Shown: positions 11,000 to 23,210 of the stretch, in pieces
Layout of the letters: each line of letters opens with the position of its first letter
Position numbering within the stretch: the first letter of the stretch is position 1
Assembly (NCBI GenBank): GCA_965205675.1
Contig: OZ242186.1
Coordinates: 224,001-288,000, forward strand
Length of the DNA stretch: 64,000 bases
Source: Nitrosopumilus sp.
GTDB lineage: Archaea; Thermoproteota; Nitrososphaeria; Nitrososphaerales; Nitrosopumilaceae
Direction of reading: 5' to 3'
Program-made: the position numbers and the translations under genes
Notes under the pieces: generated by a model
The model's input: only the letters and a program-made list of their open reading frames with translations
Told to the model about the DNA's origin: nothing
The model's database searches: none

Positions 11000-12220
11000 T
11001 TGGAACTCGATTTTATTACTCAGAATGCAATAATCTATGTCTTAATGGCTTGGGTAGTCATTATAGTAATTGCAAAAGCTCTCAAAGTAGAAAAATATGG
11101 TTTTGAATTAAAGGCATATAGTCTTGTATACAAGAATAAAGATGTTAATGATATATTAATCAAAGTACTTGGACGAACAAAAAAAAGTATCAAAGTTTTT
11201 GCAGACATAAGTGTGGTTGCAGGCTTTATTATGATGGGATTTGCATTTTATTTTTTATTAAATAATGTTTCAAACTATTTTGTTGCACAATCAAGTTTTT
11301 CAGAACTAACAGTACTTATCCCAGGCGTTACGTTAACTTCAGCACCAGCTATTGCATATTTTCTACTTTCAATTCCAATTGTATTAGTTATGCATGAAGG
11401 AGCACATGGCATAGTAGCTGCATTAGAAAAGATAAAAATCAAGACTGGCGGATTTGCAGTATTCATTGCATTGTTTGCAGGATTTGTAGAGCCAGATGAA
11501 GAAGAGTTTGATAAAGCTAAAAAGATTTCAAAATTAAGAGTGATTGGAGCAGGCGCCACATCGAATGTATTATTTGCAATTGTACTAGGAATGATTATGT
11601 TAACAAATCCAATTTTTGGAATAGTTTTAGAGAGCATTCCACTATTTGGTGAAACTATCTTGAACACATTTTATGAATTATCAAAAGGAGTTCTGATACT
11701 TTCAATCATAGAAAACTCAGGTGCTGAACAAGCAGGATTGCTTGCAAATGACATTATTACTACGATTAATGGTATACCGATTCATGGTCCGGCAGATTTC
11801 CCTATTTTAAATCCAGGAGAAACAGCTAATGTTTTTGTAATTAGAGATGGCCAAGCATTAGAATTTGGATTAGAAGTAATGTCTGATCCAAATGATCCCA
11901 AAAGAGGATTAATAGGAATTATGAGGGATAATTCAATTCCATACAAACCTGTGATGAATTTTATTGACTGGACAAATGTAGATTTTAACATTTCAATGTT
12001 TTTGTTGTGGCTTTGGATGATTTCATTTTTTATTGGTATTATCAACATGCTACCTTTACCAATTTTAGATGGTGGAAAATTCATTCATATAATTATTGAT
12101 AAACGAATTTCAGATAAATCAACTAACATAGTAATGTGGGGAATATACGCATTTACATTTGTTCTATTTGGTCTTAACATTGCCTTGTCATATTTAAAGT
12201 CAGGATGGTTTACAATCTAA
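11000..12220 (+). CDS. Site-2 protease (M50) with PDZ domain
   Basis: HEGAH, NMLPLPILDGG and SGAEQAGL..ND PDZ motifs. Confidence 0.92.
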   Translation: MELDFITQNAIIYVLMAWVVIIVIAKALKVEKYGFELKAYSLVYKNKDVNDILIKVLGRTKKSIKVFADISVVAGFIMMGFAFYFLLNNVSNYFVAQSSFSELTVLIPGVTLTSAPAIAYFLLSIPIVLVMHEGAHGIVAALEKIKIKTGGFAVFIALFAGFVEPDEEEFDKAKKISKLRVIGAGATSNVLFAIVLGMIMLTNPIFGIVLESIPLFGETILNTFYELSKGVLILSIIENSGAEQAGLLANDIITTINGIPIHGPADFPILNPGETANVFVIRDGQALEFGLEVMSDPNDPKRGLIGIMRDNSIPYKPVMNFIDWTNVDFNISMFLLWLWMISFFIGIINMLPLPILDGGKFIHIIIDKRISDKSTNIVMWGIYAFTFVLFGLNIALSYLKSGWFTI

Positions 12221-12430
12221 ATTGAATTATTTTTCCATCTACTGAATGTAAATATAACATGTGTACTCAAAATATTTTGAACTCGTCCGCTAATGGACTA
12301 ATATTTTTAATATCATTATTATAAACTTCATACTGACAGTATTATGTTAGGAGTTAACAATGATCGCAATATTCAGAAAGGAATAAAAAAATTTTAGAAA
12401 TGAACGAAACTAGTTTTTCATTTATGATTT

Positions 12431-14581
12431 TCAGACAACATAAGGTGACTTACATTTTGGACACTTGTCATCAAATGGTTCATCCTTGAAACCACACTCA
12501 CCACAAATTGCAATATGTCTTAGAGGTTTGAAAGAAGGCACAAGTTCTGATGTTTTCTCTATGGATTTTTTAATATCATCAACTTTAGCGTCTTTGTCAA
12601 TTTGTAATGTTACCAATAAACCACCGTTAAGTAATTTTGAGATTTTATTGCATTCAGAAATATGCTCACTTTTGGCAGTCAAGTCAGAAACTTCTGAAGC
12701 ATTAACTGTAATACCTTGAGAATAAAAATCAGTATCCATAGAGTTTAGGCTCGAATTTTTGCCATATTTTTCACCATCAAGGTTTGCAAAACGAGCAGAT
12801 CCTTCAGTTTTAGTCATAGAAATAGCCACAGTATCGCCTAATTCTTTGCCTTTTTTGTTACCAACATCTACGGCAGTTTCTATGACTTTATGAAGAATGT
12901 CTCGTCCTTCTTTGTTGTCTTGGAATCCAAGTATGTTAAAGACTGCTTCTTTGAGTCCCACTAAATTCACAACAAGAGATACAGAACTTCTCTGCATGTA
13001 TTGTGTATTCTTTGCAAGGATTGGATTAAGTCCTCTTCGTGTAAGATCAGAGATCTCTTTCTTTCTTAATGCCATGGAAGCTAAAGCTGGTTTCATTAGT
13101 AAAGCAAGTCTTGCTCTAAAATAGGTTTCATCTTTATTTGATTCAAATGCTAATCTTGGAAGATTAATTGAAACAGATTGTAGATTAATTGATAGAGAAC
13201 CAGATGTTTTTGTAGAACCATTTGTGATTCCATAACTAGATGTTTGTCCTTTAGCAAATATTATTTTTCCACCAAGTAAAATTATTTCAGCCGCTGATTT
13301 TGATACATCAGTAATCTTTCCTTTATCAGCATCAATTATCAAACCAATTTTTGGAATTGGTGTAATGTTTGTATAATTTTTATATGCATTGATAATTGCA
13401 TTAATTATTTTTGTATCCGTACCCAATTGTAAACGAATAGAAATATTGGTGCTAGTTTTACTATATTTTGAAGTAGTTGACGCAGTTGCAAATGCATTAG
13501 TTAATCTTTGTTCAAGTTCTGGAAGAGACTTTGAATGTTTTATAAATAATGAAACTAAACCATCAAGTACAATTTCTTGTGAAGCTTCTTTAGAAAGAAG
13601 AGCAATGATTATAGATAGCGAACTTGTGATTTCGTCTAATTGTTTTGATGCTGAAAATCTTGATACATCAAGATATTTTCCACCAAGATCTATACCGCCA
13701 TCAATTAATTCTTTAATGTTAACAAATATTGTATCCGGAATCATAGACCAAACTCCAGGATTAGAGATGTGTAAATCGCCAGATAGATGTGAATCTGCTA
13801 CATCTTTGGGTAAAATGTTTGTAAGAAGATGTTCTGCAAACACTTTTTGTCCACTATTAAACAAAAGACCTTCAGCACCATTATCTACATCATCCAAGTT
13901 AGAAATCATTTCTTGAACATCATAAACAGGTAAGCCTAAGCGTGCGAGTTTGTTCCGATATTCTTCATGACCATGCTCAAGTAGTACAGAATTGACCATT
14001 TCACGGATTAATGCCCCTGTAAGATAAGTTGTCTGATATTTGTAAATTCTATTTTCAACTTCTTCTGTAATTTTTTGTGCAAGTTCTAATGGAAGACTTC
14101 CTTCACGAACAAGTGACTGAATAATTTTATGTGAGTTAAATTCTTCAATTGATTCAGAAGACGTTCTAACATACATTTTTCCACTTTCAATAATTGAACG
14201 TTCTTCAATTTGTCTTGCCAAACTTAAAACAAGTTTTCCAAGATTTGTAATTGTGTAACGTCTTTCAGATTTATTTAGTGCAACAAGCGATTGCCTAAGT
14301 AATTTTCTTAAATGATATGCAAATTTTCCACTTTCTTTTTTTGATTTAAAACCAGCTAATGATTTTAATTCAGAATAGGTTAATGGACCTTTAGAGTTTA
14401 AAATTCTAAGTATATCAATTCTGTTTGGACTAGCCATTACAGAGAAGATCATCCTGACTCGTTTTGATGTAGATTGTAGTATTCCATCTCTTTTTGGATC
14501 AGAATCATCCATATCAGAATCTAGATCTAATTCAGAATCATCATCTAGTTCTAATTCTAAATCTTCTTCGGTTTGTTTCAT
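12431..14581 (-). CDS. ArsR-like wHTH + ATP-cone + degenerate class III RNR (NrdD-like) fusion protein
   Basis: PNRIDILRIL...YHLRKL HTH; VRTSSESIEEFNSHKI ATP cone; HLSGDLHI and INLPRLA NrdD motifs; C-terminal CxxC-CxxC; no glycyl-radical loop. Confidence 0.8.
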   Translation of the reverse strand: MKQTEEDLELELDDDSELDLDSDMDDSDPKRDGILQSTSKRVRMIFSVMASPNRIDILRILNSKGPLTYSELKSLAGFKSKKESGKFAYHLRKLLRQSLVALNKSERRYTITNLGKLVLSLARQIEERSIIESGKMYVRTSSESIEEFNSHKIIQSLVREGSLPLELAQKITEEVENRIYKYQTTYLTGALIREMVNSVLLEHGHEEYRNKLARLGLPVYDVQEMISNLDDVDNGAEGLLFNSGQKVFAEHLLTNILPKDVADSHLSGDLHISNPGVWSMIPDTIFVNIKELIDGGIDLGGKYLDVSRFSASKQLDEITSSLSIIIALLSKEASQEIVLDGLVSLFIKHSKSLPELEQRLTNAFATASTTSKYSKTSTNISIRLQLGTDTKIINAIINAYKNYTNITPIPKIGLIIDADKGKITDVSKSAAEIILLGGKIIFAKGQTSSYGITNGSTKTSGSLSINLQSVSINLPRLAFESNKDETYFRARLALLMKPALASMALRKKEISDLTRRGLNPILAKNTQYMQRSSVSLVVNLVGLKEAVFNILGFQDNKEGRDILHKVIETAVDVGNKKGKELGDTVAISMTKTEGSARFANLDGEKYGKNSSLNSMDTDFYSQGITVNASEVSDLTAKSEHISECNKISKLLNGGLLVTLQIDKDAKVDDIKKSIEKTSELVPSFKPLRHIAICGECGFKDEPFDDKCPKCKSPYVV

Positions 14582-14693
14582 TGATGTTTCTAAATTTAAT
14601 GCAGTAAATAAGACTTGTGACTATATAATTTATTGTGATTTTTGATCAGATTATTTGAAAAGATAAAAAAGATCTATAAAGGAGATTAAACAA

Positions 14694-14855
14694 TTATTTT
14701 TCTTGGACATCTAGTGAAAATTCTGATGTAGAAAGTTTTTGTCCACACGATGGACATTTCCCATTTGAGGGATTTAGTACATCTTTTAGAGATTTTAGCA
14801 TTTTCATATTTGTGATCTTTTCTCCACATTTACCACATGTAATTTCTACTGACAT
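14694..14855 (-). CDS. Small zinc-ribbon protein, 53 aa (not in ORF track)
   Basis: Manual translation MSVEITCGKCGEKITNMKMLKSLKDVLNPSNGKCPSCGQKLSTSEFSLDVQEK, two CxxCG motifs. Confidence 0.75.
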   Translation of the reverse strand: MSVEITCGKCGEKITNMKMLKSLKDVLNPSNGKCPSCGQKLSTSEFSLDVQEK

Positions 14856-14925
14856 GAATATGATTAGATAAGCAAAATAATTAAGAACAGGTTTTGACTT
14901 TTTTTAATAATTCAAACAAATTATT

Positions 14926-15291
14926 TTACTGTTTTTCAATGAGAATTCCACGTTCATCAAAACCACTGATTTTTGCTCGGGTTCCAACTGGAAGATCTGC
15001 CGGAGTGGCAATTTCAGCCATAAATCCAGAAATTCGTAAATCCGTATTATCTAATTGAAGTACAACAAAAGCATAAGGGGTGTATTTTTCAAAGCCTGCA
15101 GGAGGCACGGTGATTATGGTATAAGTAGCAACTGAGCCTACACCATCTAAAATAGCAGCTTCAAATTCCTTACTACCACATTTTTGACAATAATATACAG
15201 TTGAAAGATGTAGTAATCCACAATCAGAACATTTGTGAGTTAAAACTTTGCCATTTTTTGCATTTTCAATAAGTTGTTCTTCAATAGTCAT
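14926..15291 (-). CDS. DUF35 Zn-ribbon/OB-fold thiolase partner
   Basis: CSDCG...CQKCGS and PPAGF..TPY motifs; translationally adjacent to the thiolase. Confidence 0.9.
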   Translation of the reverse strand: MTIEEQLIENAKNGKVLTHKCSDCGLLHLSTVYYCQKCGSKEFEAAILDGVGSVATYTIITVPPAGFEKYTPYAFVVLQLDNTDLRISGFMAEIATPADLPVGTRAKISGFDERGILIEKQ

Positions 15292-15292
15292 T

Positions 15293-16456
15293 TTATACAC
15301 TTTGGAAAACATGAACAGCACAACTTGCTCCGGTTGCACCAAAATTATGCGTTAAACCGATTCTTGCATCTTTAACAGTCCTATCACCTGCCTTACCAGT
15401 TAATTGATCAAATACTTCTACTACTTGACCAACGCCTGTTGCACCTATTGGGTGTCCTTTTGATTTAAGACCACCTGAGGGATTAATAGAAATGTCAGAA
15501 TTTAATTTTGTTCTACCTTCACGAACAGCTTGGATACCTTGACCTTTATTAAAGAACCCTAAATCCTCGGTGTCAACTACTTCTGCAATCGTAAAGCAGT
15601 CATGTACTTCTGCAAAGTCAACATCTTTTGCAGTGATATCTGCCATTTTGTATGCATCTGCTGCTGCAAGTTTTGTACTAGGAATTGTTGTCATATGTTC
15701 ACGTCCTTGTAAAGCAGCAGGTGAACCGCCCCGACCTGAACCAATTACTTCAATGTAATCACCACCATGTTCTTTTGCAAATTTTTCAGAACAAAGAATA
15801 ACAGAACTTGCACCATCAGAAAAAGGACAACAATCATAAAGTTTCAATGGACTTGCAACTACTGTAGAATTCATTACATCATCAACTGTAATTTTCTTTT
15901 GCATGTGAGCTTTTGGATTAAGATAACCATTATCATGATTCTTTACTGCAACACTTGCAAAATCTTCTTCAGTTGCATCAAATTCTGTCAAATAAGCTCT
16001 TGCCATAGATGCAAACAGACCTGGAAATGATGCACCTGCTTGACCTTCATAGAAAAAGTCAGAACAATATGCAAAGTAAGTTGTAGTCCATTCAGTTCCG
16101 GTATGTGTTACTTTTTCAACACCAGTGACAACAAGACAATCATAAAATCCTGCTGCAACATTTGCATATGCCTCTCTAAAAGATACAGAGCCACTTCCAC
16201 ATGCCGACTCTATTGTTAATGATGGTTTATCCGAAATTCCTAGTCTGCTCATTAAGACAGGACCAATATGGACTTGTTTGTCAGCTACTCCAAAAACGTT
16301 TGAAATGTAAGATGCTTTAATCTCTTTAGGATCAATGCCAGCACTTTCTATGGCTAAAATTGATGCCTGAGTAGTAATATCAGCAATACTCTCACTTAAT
16401 TTACCATATTTGGTGCTACCAGATCCAAGAACACAAACCTTTTCCACAAATGTCAC
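15293..16456 (-). CDS. Archaeal acetoacetyl-CoA thiolase
   Basis: ESACGSG, DCCPFSDGA, EVHDCF and KGHPIGATG motifs. Confidence 0.92.
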   Translation of the reverse strand: MTFVEKVCVLGSGSTKYGKLSESIADITTQASILAIESAGIDPKEIKASYISNVFGVADKQVHIGPVLMSRLGISDKPSLTIESACGSGSVSFREAYANVAAGFYDCLVVTGVEKVTHTGTEWTTTYFAYCSDFFYEGQAGASFPGLFASMARAYLTEFDATEEDFASVAVKNHDNGYLNPKAHMQKKITVDDVMNSTVVASPLKLYDCCPFSDGASSVILCSEKFAKEHGGDYIEVIGSGRGGSPAALQGREHMTTIPSTKLAAADAYKMADITAKDVDFAEVHDCFTIAEVVDTEDLGFFNKGQGIQAVREGRTKLNSDISINPSGGLKSKGHPIGATGVGQVVEVFDQLTGKAGDRTVKDARIGLTHNFGATGASCAVHVFQSV

Positions 16457-16503
16457 TGACCTATTTCCCTATAAAAATTGTTTTAGTAAATTCACCATAG
16501 AAA

Positions 16504-16977
16504 ATGCCAAGAAAAAAATCAAGTCTCAAAACTGTTCAGATCAAAAAACCTGTAATGAGACACATAGTCAAAACTACAAAATCAAGAACTAACATCTTAA
16601 AAAAAGAAATCATTCAGTATTTTGATAGTAATGGATTTCTTTCGTGGTCTTCAAAAGAGAGAAAATACATTATTCTTGGAACAAATTCTCCTAAAAATGG
16701 ACTAGTACAGTGTCCTGAATGTAAATTAGGAAAATTGATGGTGGTTAGATCAAAATCTACTAGAAAACGATTCATAGGTTGTTCAAATTTTTATGGCGGA
16801 TGTAAAGCATCATCGCCACTATTACAAAAAGCAAGGATGAGGGCATTGAAGATGCCTTGTGAGATTTGTAAATGGCCAATGATCATTTTTAGATATACTA
16901 GAAATCAAAAATGGACAAAACAATGTGGGAATTTTAATTGTGAAAGCAGAAAGACTAAGATTTCAAGTAAGATATAA
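16504..16977 (+). CDS. Topoisomerase-I-type C4 zinc-ribbon protein
   Basis: CPEC..G.L, FIGCSNF..C and CEIC...C.N..C repeats. Confidence 0.7.
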   Translation: MPRKKSSLKTVQIKKPVMRHIVKTTKSRTNILKKEIIQYFDSNGFLSWSSKERKYIILGTNSPKNGLVQCPECKLGKLMVVRSKSTRKRFIGCSNFYGGCKASSPLLQKARMRALKMPCEICKWPMIIFRYTRNQKWTKQCGNFNCESRKTKISSKI

Positions 16978-17179
16978 CAACGATCAAAAGTTCATGAATA
17001 TTTTTATCTGATTTCTAAAAATATAATTTGCAATATCAAGTTTGAACTATTTTACTATCAAATATTTAGAAACTGCCTTGTTCATTATTGCAAACATTGC
17101 ATAATATTCTGATATCAACCTGATATCAAGATAATTTAATTGTCAAAGGATTCACCATATTTGAACAGGATAGAATAAT

Positions 17180-17920
17180 AATGGAAGATAAACAAATATA
17201 CAAGAATTCTTTGCAAGATGTTCTTTTACTTTTTTTGAGTTGTGAACTGATGTCTTGTCCAACCTCAGTGTAATTTTTCCATATTTCCAGTATAGTTACG
17301 TTAAATATTCTACAAATGTTATAGAATCGAGTTTGTCATACACTCGAAACAGTTGACTGTTATTTCCGGTGATTGCTCCATATACTGCCAGACTTTGATG
17401 TCGTCCTACATATGGAAAAAATATTATCTTGACAATCTAATGACCAATGCTTTTTCCTGTCTTTACATCTCCAATAAAAAATGCCTTATCAGCCATTGCA
17501 ATGACAAATCCATTCTTTTTTAGGCGTGAAATTCTCTCTTTGATGCGTCGTTGTCATCTTTGTCAAGGGATACACTTGCATGGTTGATGTAATATTTTTG
17601 TAGTTTTTGCAGATATGTCGTACTATGCATTATCTTTCTGAGATGAATTATATGAAATTTCACTCTAGTGAGATAAGAAGTTGTTTGTGGTAGCATCATA
17701 GATGTAAACAGAGTTAAGATTATCTTTGAGATAATGCAAAACATTTAACCCATTTTCGCATTCAGTTTGTGTAGCGTATTGTAGTTTTGTCATCCTTTAG
17801 AATCATCAATACTGCAAGCATTCTTACTGGAGCTTTGGAGTTTTTCTTTTTATGTATTGCTTTAAAGAATTCTAACTTGTTCATATGTTTTGTTGTGCTA
17901 ACTGATCAAAAAGTTTTTTA
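17180..17920 (-). pseudogene. Degraded IS630-family transposase
   Basis: Broken frames such as MNKLEFFKAIHKKKNSKAPVRMLAV, YHxxHLRKIMH, VKTGKKHW, LAVYGAIT and RVYDK, similar to the 5..709 transposase. Confidence 0.7.
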
Positions 17921-17933
17921 TTTTGGGATTTAC

Positions 17934-18749
17934 TTAGTTCACGAATTTATGCATATTGCTATAGATATCTGTTCTTCTATTTTTAAGCAGAGGTAAAATT
18001 TTTCTAGTTTGTTTTACTTTATTCAAATCAATATTTACAAAACCAATTCCTTGTTTCTTTTTCATATCAAGTAAAATTTTACCATATGGATCAACTACTA
18101 AACTTCGTCCGCAGTAAATATTTCCAATTTGATCAGGTGCAATAAGATAGCATCCATTTTCTATTGCACGTGTTTTATTAATTGTAATCCAGTGTTCTTC
18201 TTTCATATTTCCTTTAACCCATGCAGATGGAGCTACTAAAACTTCAGAGCCTGCAACTGCAAGTGATCTAGACATTTCTGGAAATCTTAGATCATAACAT
18301 ATCATCATGCCAATTTTTCCAATTGATGTTTTTATTGGCTTTGAGATTTTTGAGCCTGGAGTTATCTTGTCTGATTCTCTGAAACCTAATGCATCATAGA
18401 GATGAATTTTACGATAAGTAGAAATTATTTTACCCGATTTGTCAATTACAAATGAAGTATCATACACTCTATCTTTTATTCTACTTTTCTCATAAAACGA
18501 GCCAACAATTTGGATTTTATTTTCTTTTGCATGTTTTGCAATAGTTGTAACAAAATTTCCATTAATCGTTTCAGCTAAATTTGCTAATTGTTTTGAAGTT
18601 TGAGATGAATTTGTATAAAACATCATGAATTCTGGGAATGCACAAAGTATTGCATTCTGTGAAGTGGCTTTTTTAACAAATGAAAGAATTTTTTTTAGAT
18701 TATCATCTTTGTTAGTAGATGCTTTGAATTGAACTATTGCGACTTTCAT
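17934..18749 (-). CDS. Carbon-nitrogen hydrolase (nitrilase superfamily, Nit1-like)
   Basis: FPE, YRKIHL and ICYDLRFPE catalytic E-K-C triad. Confidence 0.92.
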   Translation of the reverse strand: MKVAIVQFKASTNKDDNLKKILSFVKKATSQNAILCAFPEFMMFYTNSSQTSKQLANLAETINGNFVTTIAKHAKENKIQIVGSFYEKSRIKDRVYDTSFVIDKSGKIISTYRKIHLYDALGFRESDKITPGSKISKPIKTSIGKIGMMICYDLRFPEMSRSLAVAGSEVLVAPSAWVKGNMKEEHWITINKTRAIENGCYLIAPDQIGNIYCGRSLVVDPYGKILLDMKKKQGIGFVNIDLNKVKQTRKILPLLKNRRTDIYSNMHKFVN

Positions 18750-19389
18750 AAAATGAATTAATCATATGGCAATAAAAGGATAAACTTATGGTACAAGTGA
18801 GAAATGTACTATTTTCTTATTATGTAAATTTATTTTAGAAAATACAAATCGAACAGTGTATATACTGTCTAACAAATATTCATGACCCAAAATCTTCCAA
18901 ATTATGCTAATTCCTGAAATTTAAACTTGAATCTACAATGTACGTAAATCGAGTTCAGAATAGGGTGACGAATTTTTGTTATTGAGTATATGTGATCCCT
19001 TGACTGAGAAGTATTTTCCAGCCAAAAATTATTTTAGAATATTTCTATACAGTTTGGTATGACTGCACATCCCAAATGCATACAACATGTGTATAAAAAT
19101 AGATAGACCATGTCTGAGATTTGGGCATAATGATTTACAAATTGATCAGAAATGATCTCTAATGTGAGAAATAATCATTTAAATTCTTTTTTCTATGATA
19201 TTTTTTCATTATTCATCATTTTTTAGATATCATGTACGATCATGGTGTGAAATTATGAAAAATATTCTTTCCAAAATTACCACTACAATGCAAATTGGAG
19301 CATTGTCAATTTTATTCCACCGAAGTTTTAGGAAAACCCGACAAATAGTTTTTATCGTCATTTGTTCTAACCCCTGTGAAGAGATTATA

Positions 19390-22041
19390 ATGGACAATTC
19401 ACAAATAGAAAATACGATCAGTGAGATCCGTAAGCGCAGTGGTGCAGTAACGGCTTTCAATAAAGATAAAATTTCAAATGCCATTTATCAGGCATTGGCA
19501 GCCACCTCTAAAGCCGATCGTGGCGTTGCCGACAAACTAGCAGAGGATGTAGTTAACAAGTTAGTAGAACAAGGATTTACTAGTTCTAGATCACCTACAG
19601 TTGAAGATATTCAGGATGTTGTAGAATCGACTTTAATAGATAGCGGTAATAGTGATATTGCAAAAGCATACATCGTCTATAGACACGAGAGAAGAAAATT
19701 AAGAGACGAAAAAATGAAAGTCTTGAATCTAAAAGCATTAGATCCAGTCTCAAAGAAATTTGATTTAAATTGTTTGAGAGTGTTAGCGTCAAGGTATCTA
19801 TTCAGAAATTCAAAAAATGAAATTACTGAATCACCAACTCAAATGTTTGAGCGAGTTGCAATTCTAGTAGGTATTGGTGACATGCTATATGATTCACAAA
19901 TATTTGATAAATCTGGCAATCACAAACAAGACATTGAACAAGCAAATTCATATCTCGAGAAACTAGATGCTTTTGATTACAAGTTCAAAGTTGGGGATTA
20001 TTTCTTCAATAAATGGCACTTTAGGGCTTTAATCAATCACTATGTAACTCTTGCAAATAAAGGTCAAATGAAAATTAATTTCAAAGATCTTTTGACACTT
20101 CTGGCAGGAAAGAAACTTGAAAGTTATTCAGATAAAATTACTGAATACTTTGAAATGATGACTGGACAAGACTTTCTACCAAATTCACCAACAATGATGA
20201 ATGCAGGTGGAAGGCTAGGACAGCTATCAGCATGCTTTGTACTTGGCATGAATGATGGCATGGAAGATATTATGAAATCTACTTCTGATGCTGCATTAAT
20301 CTTCAAGTCTGGAGGTGGAGTTGGCATCAACTACTCTGATCTTCGTGAAGAAGGCGATATTGTTGCATCAACATCTGGTGTCGCATCTGGTCCTGTATCT
20401 TTCATGAACATCATTAACACGGTCACAGAAGTTGTAAAACAAGGTGGTAAAAGACGTGGTGCAAATATGGGAATTATTGAAGCATGGCATCCTGATGTAG
20501 AAAAATTCATCACCAACAAGACAGAAGCAGGGATTTTAGAGAATTTCAACATTAGTGTTGGAATTTGGGAAGACTTTTGGCATGCACTTGTAAACACTAC
20601 TGATGGTAACTATGTTTTGCGTAGTCCACGTGACAAAAAACCTGTTAAAGAAATCAATGCACATCAACTAATTGATCTAATTGCATTATCTGCTTGGAAG
20701 AGTGCAGAACCGGGTTTGATCTTCTTTGATCAAATTAACAAATACAACGTATTTGCAAAAGCTAGACAGGCGCCACTAAGAGCAACAAATCCATGTGGTG
20801 AACAAAGTCTATATCCGTATGAATCATGCAACCTAGGTTCTATTAACTTGGTAAATCTTGCAAAAAGACAAGCTGATGGTTCTTATGAATTTGATTGGCA
20901 AGGATATGAAGAGATCATCCGAAAGACAACCAGATTTTTAGATAACATCATTGATGTAAATAATTATCCAGTACAAGAAATCAACATAGCCTCAAAAGAG
21001 TCTAGACGAATTGGGCTAGGAGTAATGGGAGTAGCTGATTTACTATACAGACTAAAAATCCCATATAATTCTAAAGAAGGATACAAACTACAATCAAAAT
21101 TATCTGAAGCCTTAACATATTATTCTATGGAAGAAAGTGTTGCACTGGCTAATGCACGTGGTGAGTTCCCACTTTGTGCAAAGACAGAATTTCCTGAAGG
21201 GAAGATTCCAATATCTGGATACTATGAGAAATCAAAAGATGCTCATTCTTATGAATGGGATCCACTCATTAAAAAAATCCAAAAACATGGTATTAGAAAT
21301 GTTTTAACTACTACAGTGGCCCCAACTGGAACATTATCTATGATTGCAGATTGTTCAAATGGAATGGAACCTGCATTTGCGCTAGTGTTTGAAAAGAGAG
21401 TCACTGTTGGAAGATTCTTCTATACAAATAAGATTCTAGAAGAAGCTCTAAAGGAAGAGTGTCTCTACACAGATGAAATTCTTGAAAAGATTGCAGATAA
21501 TTATGGCTCATTGAGTGGAATAGACGAGATTCCACAATGGATGCAAGATGTCTTTGTTACAGCAATGGACATTCATTGGGCTGATCATTTGATGGCTCAG
21601 GGTGTATGGCAAGATTGGATTGGAAATGCAATTGCAAAAACAATCAACATGCCGTATGATGTAACAGTAGAAGATGTGAAATCTGCATATCTACTAGCCC
21701 ATGAGATTGGTCTAAAAGGAATGACTGTTTATCGGGATGGTTCAAGACACAAACAAGTTCTTCATATGACCAGCGAGAATGCAACAAAGACTTTTGAGGT
21801 CACACCGAGTGATTACATGAATGAGTTTGTAACTAAAAACATTACAAATGCATACATAAAATCTCAAGTTAATGCCGCACTTACATTAAAGGTCCATGAT
21901 GAAGAGATCACATTAGAACCTCCAAAACAAGAAGAGATTCCTGAGGACAGATTATGTCCAACGTGTAAAAACACTCTTGTCTTTGTTGAAGGTTGTAGTA
22001 CCTGTATCGAATGTGGATACAGTGGTTGTACTTCTGGATAA
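19390..22041 (+). CDS. nrdJ: Class II (adenosylcobalamin-dependent) ribonucleotide reductase with ATP cone
   Basis: ATP cone; FLPNSPT, LSACFV, TNPCGEQ and TVYRDGSR motifs; C-terminal CPTC...EGC..C..CG; start set to ATG 19390. Confidence 0.95.
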   Translation: MDNSQIENTISEIRKRSGAVTAFNKDKISNAIYQALAATSKADRGVADKLAEDVVNKLVEQGFTSSRSPTVEDIQDVVESTLIDSGNSDIAKAYIVYRHERRKLRDEKMKVLNLKALDPVSKKFDLNCLRVLASRYLFRNSKNEITESPTQMFERVAILVGIGDMLYDSQIFDKSGNHKQDIEQANSYLEKLDAFDYKFKVGDYFFNKWHFRALINHYVTLANKGQMKINFKDLLTLLAGKKLESYSDKITEYFEMMTGQDFLPNSPTMMNAGGRLGQLSACFVLGMNDGMEDIMKSTSDAALIFKSGGGVGINYSDLREEGDIVASTSGVASGPVSFMNIINTVTEVVKQGGKRRGANMGIIEAWHPDVEKFITNKTEAGILENFNISVGIWEDFWHALVNTTDGNYVLRSPRDKKPVKEINAHQLIDLIALSAWKSAEPGLIFFDQINKYNVFAKARQAPLRATNPCGEQSLYPYESCNLGSINLVNLAKRQADGSYEFDWQGYEEIIRKTTRFLDNIIDVNNYPVQEINIASKESRRIGLGVMGVADLLYRLKIPYNSKEGYKLQSKLSEALTYYSMEESVALANARGEFPLCAKTEFPEGKIPISGYYEKSKDAHSYEWDPLIKKIQKHGIRNVLTTTVAPTGTLSMIADCSNGMEPAFALVFEKRVTVGRFFYTNKILEEALKEECLYTDEILEKIADNYGSLSGIDEIPQWMQDVFVTAMDIHWADHLMAQGVWQDWIGNAIAKTINMPYDVTVEDVKSAYLLAHEIGLKGMTVYRDGSRHKQVLHMTSENATKTFEVTPSDYMNEFVTKNITNAYIKSQVNAALTLKVHDEEITLEPPKQEEIPEDRLCPTCKNTLVFVEGCSTCIECGYSGCTSG

Positions 22042-22088
22042 ATAACAGAATCACAACTTTTTTACTTTCTTTTCTTTTCTAATCTATA

Positions 22089-23210
22089 TTGAGAAAAAAG
22101 TCTCTATGCATAATTGTAGGCACAAGCATAGTTATTGTTCTGGCAATTATGGTCTTGAATATTTCTAGTCTCGGCATTATTTCACCTCAATTGACAAATG
22201 AAAAAATTGGTCTTGTAATCAATTCTCCAAATCAATCAACAACATTACAGGACTTGGATAGCATTTATTCAGAAGCATCGGATTCTGGAATTGGAAGAAG
22301 TAATGTCTATCTTTTTTGGAATTTAATTGAGCCAATACGTGGAGAATATGACTGGAAACAATCTGACACACTTATGAGCTTTAACAAAAAAAACAATCTC
22401 CAAGTTACTTTGTATTTTTCTATAATCAATGGTGAAACTCTTGGTCCTTTTCCAACTTGGATTGGAAATCCGTCTCTCAATTCTATAGATGAAGATAGAA
22501 TTGCCAGTGTACTTGATGCAATATTATCAAGATATAACATTGTTGATACAGTAATTTTTGCAGGAGAGACAGAATCTCAGTTTAGATATAAAGAACAAAA
22601 TATTCCCATCTATAAAGAACTATTTAACGGGGTATATGATCAAATTAAAGAGAAACATCCAGATGTAAAAATAGGAAATGCGTTTGCGTTACATCAAGTT
22701 TTGAATAAAAATTTACGAAATACTGTAACTGACTTGCTAATTGGTGATTTTATTGCATTTTCATATTCTCCAGTTGATACATTAAATGATATTGTAAAAA
22801 CTCCTGAACAAGCCAAAGAAGACTTGAAACAAGTGTTTGACTTGGTAGATGATAAAAAAGTTGGACTTTTTGAGATCAGTTGGAGTACATCTGATTTTAT
22901 TGGAGGAAATAATACCGGACAAACAGAATTTTTAGAAAAATCCTTTGAATTCTACACTGAGAATGAATCTAAAATAGAATTTTTCACTTGGTATAGACAA
23001 TACGATAAACCTGATGGAACATGCATAATTGAAGAGTCAGAAATTAGTAGTGTTAACATCAATCCCGGTGGAGGATCTGGATTGGGTAGCAATGAATATG
23101 TAATTGAAAGATTGAGCCATTACATTTGTAATACAGGATTGATTACTAGTGAGGGTATACCTAAATCAAGTTGGAATGAATTTAAAAAACAAATTGGAAT
23201 GTTAAACTAA
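22089..23210 (+). CDS. Membrane-anchored glycoside-hydrolase-like (TIM barrel) protein
   Basis: N-terminal TM anchor; W..IEP..G.YDW and E.SWS GH-A clan-like motifs. Confidence 0.55.
   Translation: MRKKSLCIIVGTSIVIVLAIMVLNISSLGIISPQLTNEKIGLVINSPNQSTTLQDLDSIYSEASDSGIGRSNVYLFWNLIEPIRGEYDWKQSDTLMSFNKKNNLQVTLYFSIINGETLGPFPTWIGNPSLNSIDEDRIASVLDAILSRYNIVDTVIFAGETESQFRYKEQNIPIYKELFNGVYDQIKEKHPDVKIGNAFALHQVLNKNLRNTVTDLLIGDFIAFSYSPVDTLNDIVKTPEQAKEDLKQVFDLVDDKKVGLFEISWSTSDFIGGNNTGQTEFLEKSFEFYTENESKIEFFTWYRQYDKPDGTCIIEESEISSVNINPGGGSGLGSNEYVIERLSHYICNTGLITSEGIPKSSWNEFKKQIGMLN

Follow-up and report, generated by a model that had tools for sequence, protein, structure and literature searches.

NrdR binds paired boxes at the promoters of ribonucleotide reductase (RNR) genes in a nucleotide-dependent manner. 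In the available part of the source, bacterial nrdR is described as accompanying all RNR classes and NrdR as rare in archaea (PMC9110341). How archaea control the transcription of their RNR genes is largely open. Here, we examine a 64,000-nt stretch of DNA from the archaeon Nitrosopumilus sp. (family Nitrosopumilaceae; assembly GCA_965205675.1, contig OZ242186.1, positions 224,001–288,000 of the forward strand; hereafter the window), in which an open reading frame (ORF) at positions 12431–14581 encodes a protein that combines a winged helix-turn-helix (wHTH) domain, an ATP-cone, a catalytically dead barrel resembling that of the anaerobic class III RNR (NrdD), and a Zn ribbon. Judging from its sequence and from the genes that accompany it, the protein is probably a non-catalytic, RNR-linked, DNA-binding transcription regulator and a functional analogue of NrdR; by analogy, it is plausible that it senses nucleotides. 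NrdR is absent from this genome, and a protein of this composition encoded before a working RNR gene is a concrete and testable candidate for a regulator.

Four Pfam families score above their gathering thresholds in the 716-amino-acid (aa) ORF: DUF7347 (40.8 bits, aa 45–119), HTH_20 (32.6 bits against a cut-off of 27, aa 49–101), ATP-cone (PF03477; 34.1 bits against a cut-off of 25.8, aa 136–208), and NRDD (PF13597; 98.5 bits). The best NRDD stretch (aa 458–712) corresponds to profile positions 272–529 of 562, and the glycyl-radical end of the profile is thus unmatched. The wHTH is of the ArsR type, as the family profile also matches NolR, NmtR, HlyU, and ArsR chains (E = 6e-5 to 4e-4). It contains no Cys and scores 23.5 bits against the metalloregulator model NF033788 (cut-off of 55), so it does not classify as an ArsR/SmtB metalloregulator. 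Within it, the segment GKFAYHLRKL (aa 85–94) is read as the putative recognition helix. The tail that precedes the wHTH has 15 Asp or Glu among its first 30 residues, and its length and sequence vary strongly among close relatives. Further along the protein lie the motifs HLSGDLHI (aa 265–272) and INLPRLA (aa 472–478) and the C-terminal CPKCKSPYVV (aa 707–716); its only five Cys are at positions 644, 693, 696, 707, and 710.

The structure was modelled with AlphaFold2 from a family alignment of 98 rows, and the model is confident (mean predicted local distance difference test [pLDDT] score of 91.2; predicted template modelling score of 0.86). In a Foldseek search, the structures closest to the model are the class III RNRs of S. 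thermophilus, P. copri, T. maritima, and phage T4 (E = 7e-21 to 3e-12; template modelling score up to 0.67), whereas class I enzymes score far lower. The RNR alpha/beta barrel with its finger loop is present, and the family profile matches NrdD chains with E-values of 5e-42 to 9e-31.

We consider it close to certain that the protein is not a class III RNR. The reference was E. coli NrdD, whose annotated record has Cys at 175, 384, 644, 647, 662, and 665 and Gly at 681; we take C175 and C384 to be the catalytic cysteines and Gly681 to be the site of the glycyl radical, which in T4 NrdD is Gly580. When the two proteins are aligned by MAFFT and hmmalign, the ribbon residues C693, C696, C707, and C710 match E. 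coli C644, C647, C662, and C665 column by column, identifying a Cys4 ribbon of the NrdD type. The protein stops six residues past the last ribbon Cys, where E. coli NrdD runs into the Gly681 loop, and it consequently has no glycyl-radical loop. E. coli C175 aligns with T284 and the finger-loop C384 with Thr or Ser, and in a profile-to-PDB alignment the finger-loop Cys of the S. thermophilus enzyme stands opposite a Ser of the family. Because there is no Cys in residues 1–643, the loss of the catalytic Cys does not hinge on any single alignment. Of the 98 rows of the family alignment, 0 and 3 have Cys in the columns of the two catalytic Cys, and none has the full catalytic set.

The substrate motif has changed as well. 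HxHD recognizes the substrate triphosphate in P. copri NrdD, according to the available part of that study (PMC11226230); here, its position is occupied by H271-I-S273-N274 (HISN), and the motif is intact in a single row of the 98, P0261, which has no wHTH. The ENANLQ segment of neighbouring true archaeal NrdDs, which by its pattern alone may correspond to the 'NxN flap' named in the accessible text of PMC11226230, is absent. Consistent with these changes, the protein scores 93.4 bits against the NrdD equivalog model TIGR02487 (cut-off of 326.35) and is also far below the cut-offs of six other NCBIfam NrdD models.

The search was extended to the whole genome, which is a single contig of 2.01 Mb and 99.9 per cent complete. 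NRDD matches occur at one locus, the ORF itself. No protein reaches the NrdG cut-offs of 131 and 126 bits, the best scores being 47 and 37 bits; the best-scoring one is a 237-aa radical S-adenosylmethionine protein with its top score as QueE, and two Nitrosopumilus relatives give similar NrdG2 scores of 49–51 bits. Within the phylum the search itself works: in three genomes that carry a true nrdD, used as a positive control, NrdG2 scores were 174–216 bits. The genome has no Gly_radical domain, and a tblastn search with four true-NrdD tails detected no separately encoded Gly-loop tail, giving short Zn-ribbon-like matches alone, the best of which is the ORF's own ribbon. The class II enzyme NrdJ has the sole class I/II RNR barrel in the genome. 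Only two ATP-cones were found, in NrdJ (76 bits) and in the ORF, and the genome therefore has no NrdR. The program-made nrdJ ORF begins at 19195; homology and a ribosome-binding-like site place the real start at 19390, and the aligned start codon is TTG in most relatives.

These results bear on an earlier note, made from the letters of the window alone. The ORF with its wHTH, ATP-cone, NrdD barrel, and terminal Zn ribbon is borne out by coordinates, Pfam matches, and motifs, as are the count of five Cys, four of them in the ribbon and none in the finger loop, and the CPKCKSPYVV end. The alignment and structure prediction that the note had proposed recover the NrdD fold without the Gly loop and the catalytic Cys; the pseudo-enzyme that it had suspected thus holds for class III chemistry, with no Gly loop, catalytic Cys, HxHD, or NrdG. 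What the note had reported for the window, the lack of a Gly loop and of NrdG, extends to the whole genome, where the proposed nrdG search found nothing above the cut-off while its positive control worked; nor is there a separately encoded glycyl-radical part or activase, which the note had named as evidence that would overturn its reading. The intact class II RNR that it placed about 5 kb away is nrdJ, at a distance of 4.8 kb. Its statement that the protein keeps nucleotide-binding sites is, by comparison, not established, given HISN in place of HxHD, the missing ENANLQ flap, and T140-S141 in place of Lys-Arg in the cone.

Gene order is the main new evidence, and it makes the link to RNR much stronger than the earlier note could see. 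In 16 of the 17 Nitrosopumilaceae genomes for which both genes were available, the regulator gene lies directly upstream of nrdJ in tandem on the same strand (gaps of 194–438 nt); in the remaining one, the two genes are adjacent but divergent. The tandem arrangement is found in all eight closest relatives within the genus and in three genomes from other families of the same order, in which the protein is 40–53 per cent identical. Within the Nitrosopumilaceae, this adds up to 24 of 26 genomes examined, and the present genome departs from the pattern because of a rearrangement. At 27–30 per cent identity, among 17 loci from other lineages of the phylum, the gene is upstream of nrdJ in two and upstream of a true nrdD in three. 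In these three true nrdD genes the Gly motif is intact, and their NRDD scores reach 518 bits; in two of the loci a small ORF separates the regulator gene from nrdD; the one tested (in locus L075) is glutaredoxin-like. The family protein L065 is 99.6 per cent identical to a protein that NCBI names Candidatus Bathyarchaeota. Pairing with whichever RNR class the host uses is how an RNR-specific regulator would behave.

The other 12 of the 17 distant loci have no RNR gene in the fetched flank. In the nine of them whose downstream neighbour was examined (L064, L067, L068, L070, L071, L073, L074, L076, and L080), pyrB or pyrI is the immediate convergent downstream neighbour. A recurrent nucleotide-metabolism neighbourhood of the distant lineages, seen by eye also in L066, L072, and L075, is the dead-NrdD gene, or the true nrdD that follows it, and then convergent pyrB/pyrI (aspartate carbamoyltransferase).

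A survey of relatives, also proposed in the earlier note, shows that the gene is family-wide and that the wHTH is its most conserved part. At E ≤1e-5, matches are present in all 56 sampled genomes of the Nitrosopumilaceae and in 291 of the 401 sampled genomes of the phylum, a count that includes true NrdDs, which share the cone and barrel; several families of the phylum have no match (0 of 23, 0 of 15, and 0 of 12 sampled genomes). Among 18 Nitrosopumilaceae orthologs, the mean identity to the query is 0.99 for the wHTH, where 89 per cent of columns are invariant, 0.89 for the ATP-cone, 0.60–0.78 for segments of the barrel, 0.58 for the Zn ribbon, and 0.31 for the acidic tail. Over the whole protein, identities are 60–88 per cent, not far from the 71–93 per cent of NrdJ in these genomes. 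The gene is under selection and not decaying, since it is found in every sampled genome of the family and its ortholog identities track those of the essential NrdJ.

The same gradient appears at greater distance. Among the 98 distant representatives of the family alignment, near-invariant residues cluster in the wHTH (R54, L61, G85, F87, Y89, H90, L91, L94, Y109, and G115) and the cone, and in the barrel comprise just D263, G268, N473, G542, and R597. Such a gradient is consistent with a DNA-binding protein, whereas an enzyme would be expected to show the opposite. The barrel is nonetheless clearly constrained, as the Asn of NLPR is conserved in 96 of the 98 rows. The ribbon is absent or otherwise different in 22 of the 98 representatives, and one of the Nitrosopumilaceae orthologs (L052, genome G124) has no Zn ribbon at all; in part of the family, the ribbon is therefore dispensable.

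The upstream regions of the two genes provide candidate control elements (see the table). The TATA-like part of the element conserved before the regulator gene ends 23 nt ahead of the ATG, which suggests a leaderless or near-leaderless mRNA. In relatives, the regulator–nrdJ spacer has two conserved dyads, TATGAAnTTCATA and GCG(G/T)TGT(C/T)AA-N5-TTGA, which stand about 75–125 nt before the nrdJ start. Downstream of them come a TATA-like box near -50 and a ribosome-binding site, GGGGAG; the sequence around the dyads has diverged. In our genome, nrdJ carries about 104 nt of a second spacer type known from some relatives, which includes the near-palindrome and the TTGTCAA element of the candidate operator. 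Downstream of the operator, a TATA-like box stands near 19350 and GAAGAG, a Shine-Dalgarno-like sequence, near 19378; the second half-site of the operator's TTGTCAA element is altered in this genome. An Rfam scan of positions 12000–23000 returned nothing at E ≤1, and the long nrdJ leader therefore has no known riboswitch.

Table. Coordinates of the regulator gene, its parts, and associated features within the window.
Feature	Position	Strand	Remarks
Whole ORF, 716 aa	12431..14581	(-)	wHTH, ATP-cone, catalytically dead NrdD-like barrel, and Zn ribbon
Acidic N-terminal tail, aa 1-39	14465..14581	(-)	Poorly conserved; pLDDT <50
ArsR-like wHTH, aa 40-129	14195..14464	(-)	From Pfam, family profile, and ortholog alignment
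ATP-cone and linker, aa 130-232	13886..14194	(-)	VRTS variant, common to archaeal true NrdDs
NrdD-like barrel, aa 233-680	12542..13885	(-)	HISN for HxHD; Asn of NLPR kept (N473)
NrdD-type Cys4 Zn ribbon	12434..12541	(-)	C693/C696/C707/C710; followed by six residues to the end of the protein
Conserved promoter element of the regulator gene	14601..14622	(-)	Consensus AGTCAcAAgTCTTATTTA
Relic of the ancestral regulator-nrdJ spacer/nrdJ leader	12243..12430	(-)	Downstream of the regulator gene; homologous to the spacer of relatives
Candidate operator before nrdJ	19285..19318	(+)	Near-palindrome ACAATGCAAATTGG (19285-19298), then conserved TTGTCAA-N5 element
nrdJ, class II RNR, intact	19390..22041	(+)	Presumed target; 4.8 kb from the regulator gene

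The distance between the two genes in the window is due to a rearrangement. Compared to the closest relative, the nrdJ block (19286–23007) has been relocated and inverted relative to the regulator block (12318–16982), and that relative has nothing corresponding to about 420 nt (18864–19285) that lie upstream of nrdJ in its new place. Housekeeping genes, and no mobile-element genes, lie in the flanks of the rearrangement. The spacer relic left behind is almost complete: it still has the TATA-like box and, at 12320–12332, a copy of the first dyad with one mismatch. Its present neighbour is a convergent gene for an M50 protease, whose 3' end it faces. That the regulator and its wHTH have stayed intact after the split from nrdJ, with the wHTH near-unchanged (mean identity to orthologs of 99 per cent), argues that the protein acts in trans. 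This genome is also a natural test case for which of the dyads matters.

Several candidate motifs were examined and set aside. A search for an operator common to the promoter of the regulator gene and the nrdJ leader gave nothing beyond recurring words of the GATCAA type (one 6-mer, in 10 of 17 genomes), and we do not build on them because GATC is only mildly enriched in non-coding DNA genome-wide (3.5 versus 2.9 per kb). In distant lineages, a TGTCAA-type half-site occurs in three of eight regulator–RNR spacers, which by a rough estimate is not above chance in AT-rich DNA. One apparent dyad family in the genome scan turned out to be an unrelated dispersed repeat. It has 11 copies, apparently near-identical over most of a 179-nt context, and could be a miniature inverted-repeat transposable element or an insertion-sequence end; the copies lie outside the window (contig G000:C1) near 591389, 702430, 873491, 879632, 1018681, 1034314, 1049425, 1066349, 1098333, 1516626, and 1816003. 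Directly upstream of the regulator gene, a 53-aa CxxC...CxxC zinc-ribbon ORF at 14694–14855 (-) has a coding sequence conserved in the upstream alignments of most Nitrosopumilaceae relatives; its family matches are weak.

The ATP-cone helps to place the origin of the protein. The canonical cone motif V-x-K-R-(D/S)-G reads IRKRSG in the NrdJ of the window and VMKRDG in E. coli NrdD; in the query, the hairpin is V138-R-T-S-S-E, with T140-S141 replacing the Lys-Arg pair. In P. copri NrdD, that pair is among the basic residues around the dATP phosphates, as the available part of the study has it (PMC11226230). Decay of the cone was considered as an explanation and rejected, because the same VRTS-type hairpin, together with a 7-residue deletion before the YR motif and a TRLGLPV linker, occurs in true and apparently active NrdDs of Bathyarchaeota-like genomes and in P0264; the variant is thus a trait of the lineage. 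Between 88 and 96 of the 98 rows retain other basic residues of the cone, namely R139, K152, R193, R209, and R214, with either K or R counted at 152. The cone was thus inherited whole from a lineage of active enzymes. P0264 itself, a true archaeal NrdD of 1206 aa with an intact Gly motif, has a large insertion at the finger-loop region relative to E. coli NrdD, which is intein-like in size and position.

A hidden Markov model (HMM) based solely on the wHTH sequences of the 18 Nitrosopumilaceae orthologs detects 96 of the 98 rows, whereas the two controls, E. coli NrdD and a true archaeal NrdD, give no match. The two rows that it misses, P0251 and P0261, the latter with two ATP-cones and no wHTH in Pfam, are consequently not to be counted as family members. 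In a FastTree phylogeny of the barrel regions, the three archaeal true NrdDs form a clade (support of 96) with P0261 as its sister, and the other 97 rows lie across the branch; this is a quick tree with many long branches, rooted on one distant outgroup (E. coli), and is indicative only. The C-terminal tails also differ across the alignment: 36 of the 98 rows end within 22 residues after the ribbon, as the query does, 26 have a tail but no Gly, 14 have a tail with a match to [RK]xxG (a permissive pattern), and the remaining 22 have no ribbon or are otherwise different. We read these states as a graded loss.

We hypothesize that a whole archaeal NrdD with an ATP-cone gained an N-terminal ArsR-like wHTH and that its radical machinery, namely the glycyl loop, both catalytic Cys, the HxHD substrate motif, and the flap, would then have been lost. 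The barrel would keep the NrdD-type homodimer, and the homodimer would offer two wHTH domains to dyad-symmetric DNA before the working RNR gene, here nrdJ. The ATP-cone, and possibly remaining effector or substrate pockets, would read the nucleotide pool, and nucleotide binding would shift DNA binding or the oligomeric state, as it does in the unrelated bacterial NrdR. A homodimer model of two copies of aa 233–716 scored 0.77, versus 0.00 for the best of three controls; in the benchmark, 20 of 30 solved pairs and 1 of 23 single chains attained this mark. Three runs agreed in at least 94 per cent of contacts, with a partner pLDDT of 82, although the pass may reflect no more than likeness to solved NrdD dimers.

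A broader proposal, which we offer tentatively and lean against, is that the family is the missing archaeal master switch for DNA-precursor supply. In that scenario, a tandem duplication of an nrdD with an ATP-cone, capture of a wHTH, and stepwise loss of the radical chemistry would have turned the allosteric apparatus of the enzyme (the cone and perhaps the effector and substrate pockets) into a multi-site nucleotide sensor that controls whichever RNR class the host uses. The members that keep a C-terminal tail, some of them with RxxG, could be surviving intermediates, and the range of the switch would be the ammonia-oxidizing archaea and related lineages, with Bathyarchaeota and Conexivisphaerales among those that could be named.

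The case for an RNR-linked regulator has to be weighed against several observations that count against it. Conserved gene order can be inherited without a regulatory link, and most of the distant loci have no RNR gene nearby. The Lys-Arg pair of canonical cones is missing here. No dyad is common to the nrdJ leader and the promoter of the regulator gene itself. Of the two dyads, one was left at the old site in this genome and the other is degenerate before nrdJ, and a genome-wide dyad scan gave too many matches at the needed mismatch levels to define a regulon. Finally, the barrel is more than a spacer, and a new catalytic role for it is conceivable. The closest functional precedent for a dead NrdD-like protein is GlyXL, which is itself NrdD-like without catalytic residues and is reported to act in the synthesis of glycine under aerobic conditions (PMC13759103), and it keeps alive a reading in which the barrel has taken on a non-radical enzymatic activity and the wHTH makes the protein a 'trigger enzyme'. 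Purifying selection on the barrel, visible in its ortholog identities and in the NLPR Asn, would suit that reading. We hold it to be rather unlikely, however, because conservation among the folded parts is lowest in the barrel, contrary to expectation for an enzyme, and because the gene is linked to RNR genes of two classes. In addition, neither the genome nor the protein (Pfam scan, E ≤0.1) has a match to PF05167, the DUF711 family to which we presume GlyXL to belong. Still less credit is due to a working class III RNR that uses a separately encoded glycyl radical and activase. The retained NrdD fold and Zn ribbon would permit it, but a nearly complete genome without a Gly_radical domain, a Gly-loop tail, or an NrdG above the cut-off, and a protein with no Cys available for the thiyl radical, make it very improbable; the host, moreover, is an aerobic ammonia oxidizer.

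Two further readings accept the gene order and interpret it differently. If the protein were a dead paralogue that binds a working RNR (NrdJ here, NrdD elsewhere) and modulates it at the protein level, with the wHTH secondary, both the tight pairing with RNR genes and the dimer interface retained in the model would be explained. Yet NrdJ and NrdD differ in class and are unlikely to share one partner surface, the NrdJ of this genome has a strong ATP-cone of its own, and the near-invariance of the wHTH would be left unexplained; we regard this reading as quite improbable. If the protein bound DNA at targets that have nothing to do with RNR, as a general regulator or one of another pathway, and its gene order were owed to descent, this would be in keeping with the pyrB/pyrI neighbours of distant loci without an adjacent RNR gene and with a genome such as this one, where the pairing with nrdJ is broken and the gene still intact. 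Against it, the pairing persists from about 90 per cent down to about 27–30 per cent identity while switching between RNR genes of class II and those of class III, which makes inertia alone hard to accept, and we judge such a regulator unlikely. The RNR-linked transcription regulator remains the reading that we favour.

A phmmer search of 1.84 billion representatives detected 1269 proteins at E ≤1e-3. In a word-indexed search, the top 120 matches listed are 85–100 per cent identical to the query and all have the same four Pfam domains; the named ones among them are all from Nitrosopumilus. Their records carry differing names, namely 'anaerobic ribonucleoside-triphosphate reductase', 'helix-turn-helix domain-containing protein', and 'ArsR family transcriptional regulator', and the first of these agrees with the earlier note's expectation that such proteins are mis-annotated as anaerobic RNRs. 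The misnaming could lead metabolic reconstructions to credit aerobic ammonia oxidizers with an oxygen-sensitive class III RNR. Ammonia-oxidizing archaea are abundant in the ocean. A full-text literature search, with supplements outside its reach, found no paper that describes the wHTH–cone–dead-NrdD family, and the available text of an RNR phylogeny study gave no match to the terms helix-turn-helix, transcription, and archaea (PMC9531940). If the proposed history is true, the family would show clearly how an entire radical enzyme was put to new use as a sensor-regulator, and because some lineages carry the active paralogue beside it, living intermediates could reveal the steps that led from the one to the other.

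Among known systems, the protein shares with ArsR/SmtB regulators a wHTH that exceeds the HTH_20 cut-off and whose profile matches NolR, NmtR, HlyU, and ArsR, but this wHTH is Cys-free, below the metalloregulator cut-off, and fused to about 590 further residues. With NrdD it has in common the fold, the ATP-cone and linker, the LPRxVADAHLSG and NLPR motifs, the Cys4 Zn ribbon, and the predicted homodimer. It differs from NrdD in lacking the glycyl loop, the catalytic Cys, HxHD, the ENANLQ flap, and an activase in the genome, and in having an extra N-terminal wHTH; the archaeal true NrdDs and the rows with a wHTH fall on opposite sides of a branch in the FastTree phylogeny. Apart from the missing DUF711 match, it is set apart from GlyXL in that the latter, as far as its accessible description goes, has genetic evidence for an enzymatic role, an ACT-domain partner, and no described wHTH or ATP-cone (PMC13759103). 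NrdR, at about 150 aa, consists of an N-terminal DNA-binding Zn ribbon and, directly after it, an ATP-cone. Here, an ArsR-like wHTH takes the N-terminal place, the sole Zn ribbon, of the NrdD type, stands at the C-terminus, and a whole dead NrdD barrel of about 480 aa is present; there is no homology outside the cone, and the cone belongs to the VRTS variant of archaeal NrdDs, from which the canonical Lys-Arg is missing. What the two proteins share is a DNA-binding domain joined to an ATP-cone, genes that adjoin RNR genes of different classes, and a presumed function in coupling the nucleotide pool to RNR transcription.

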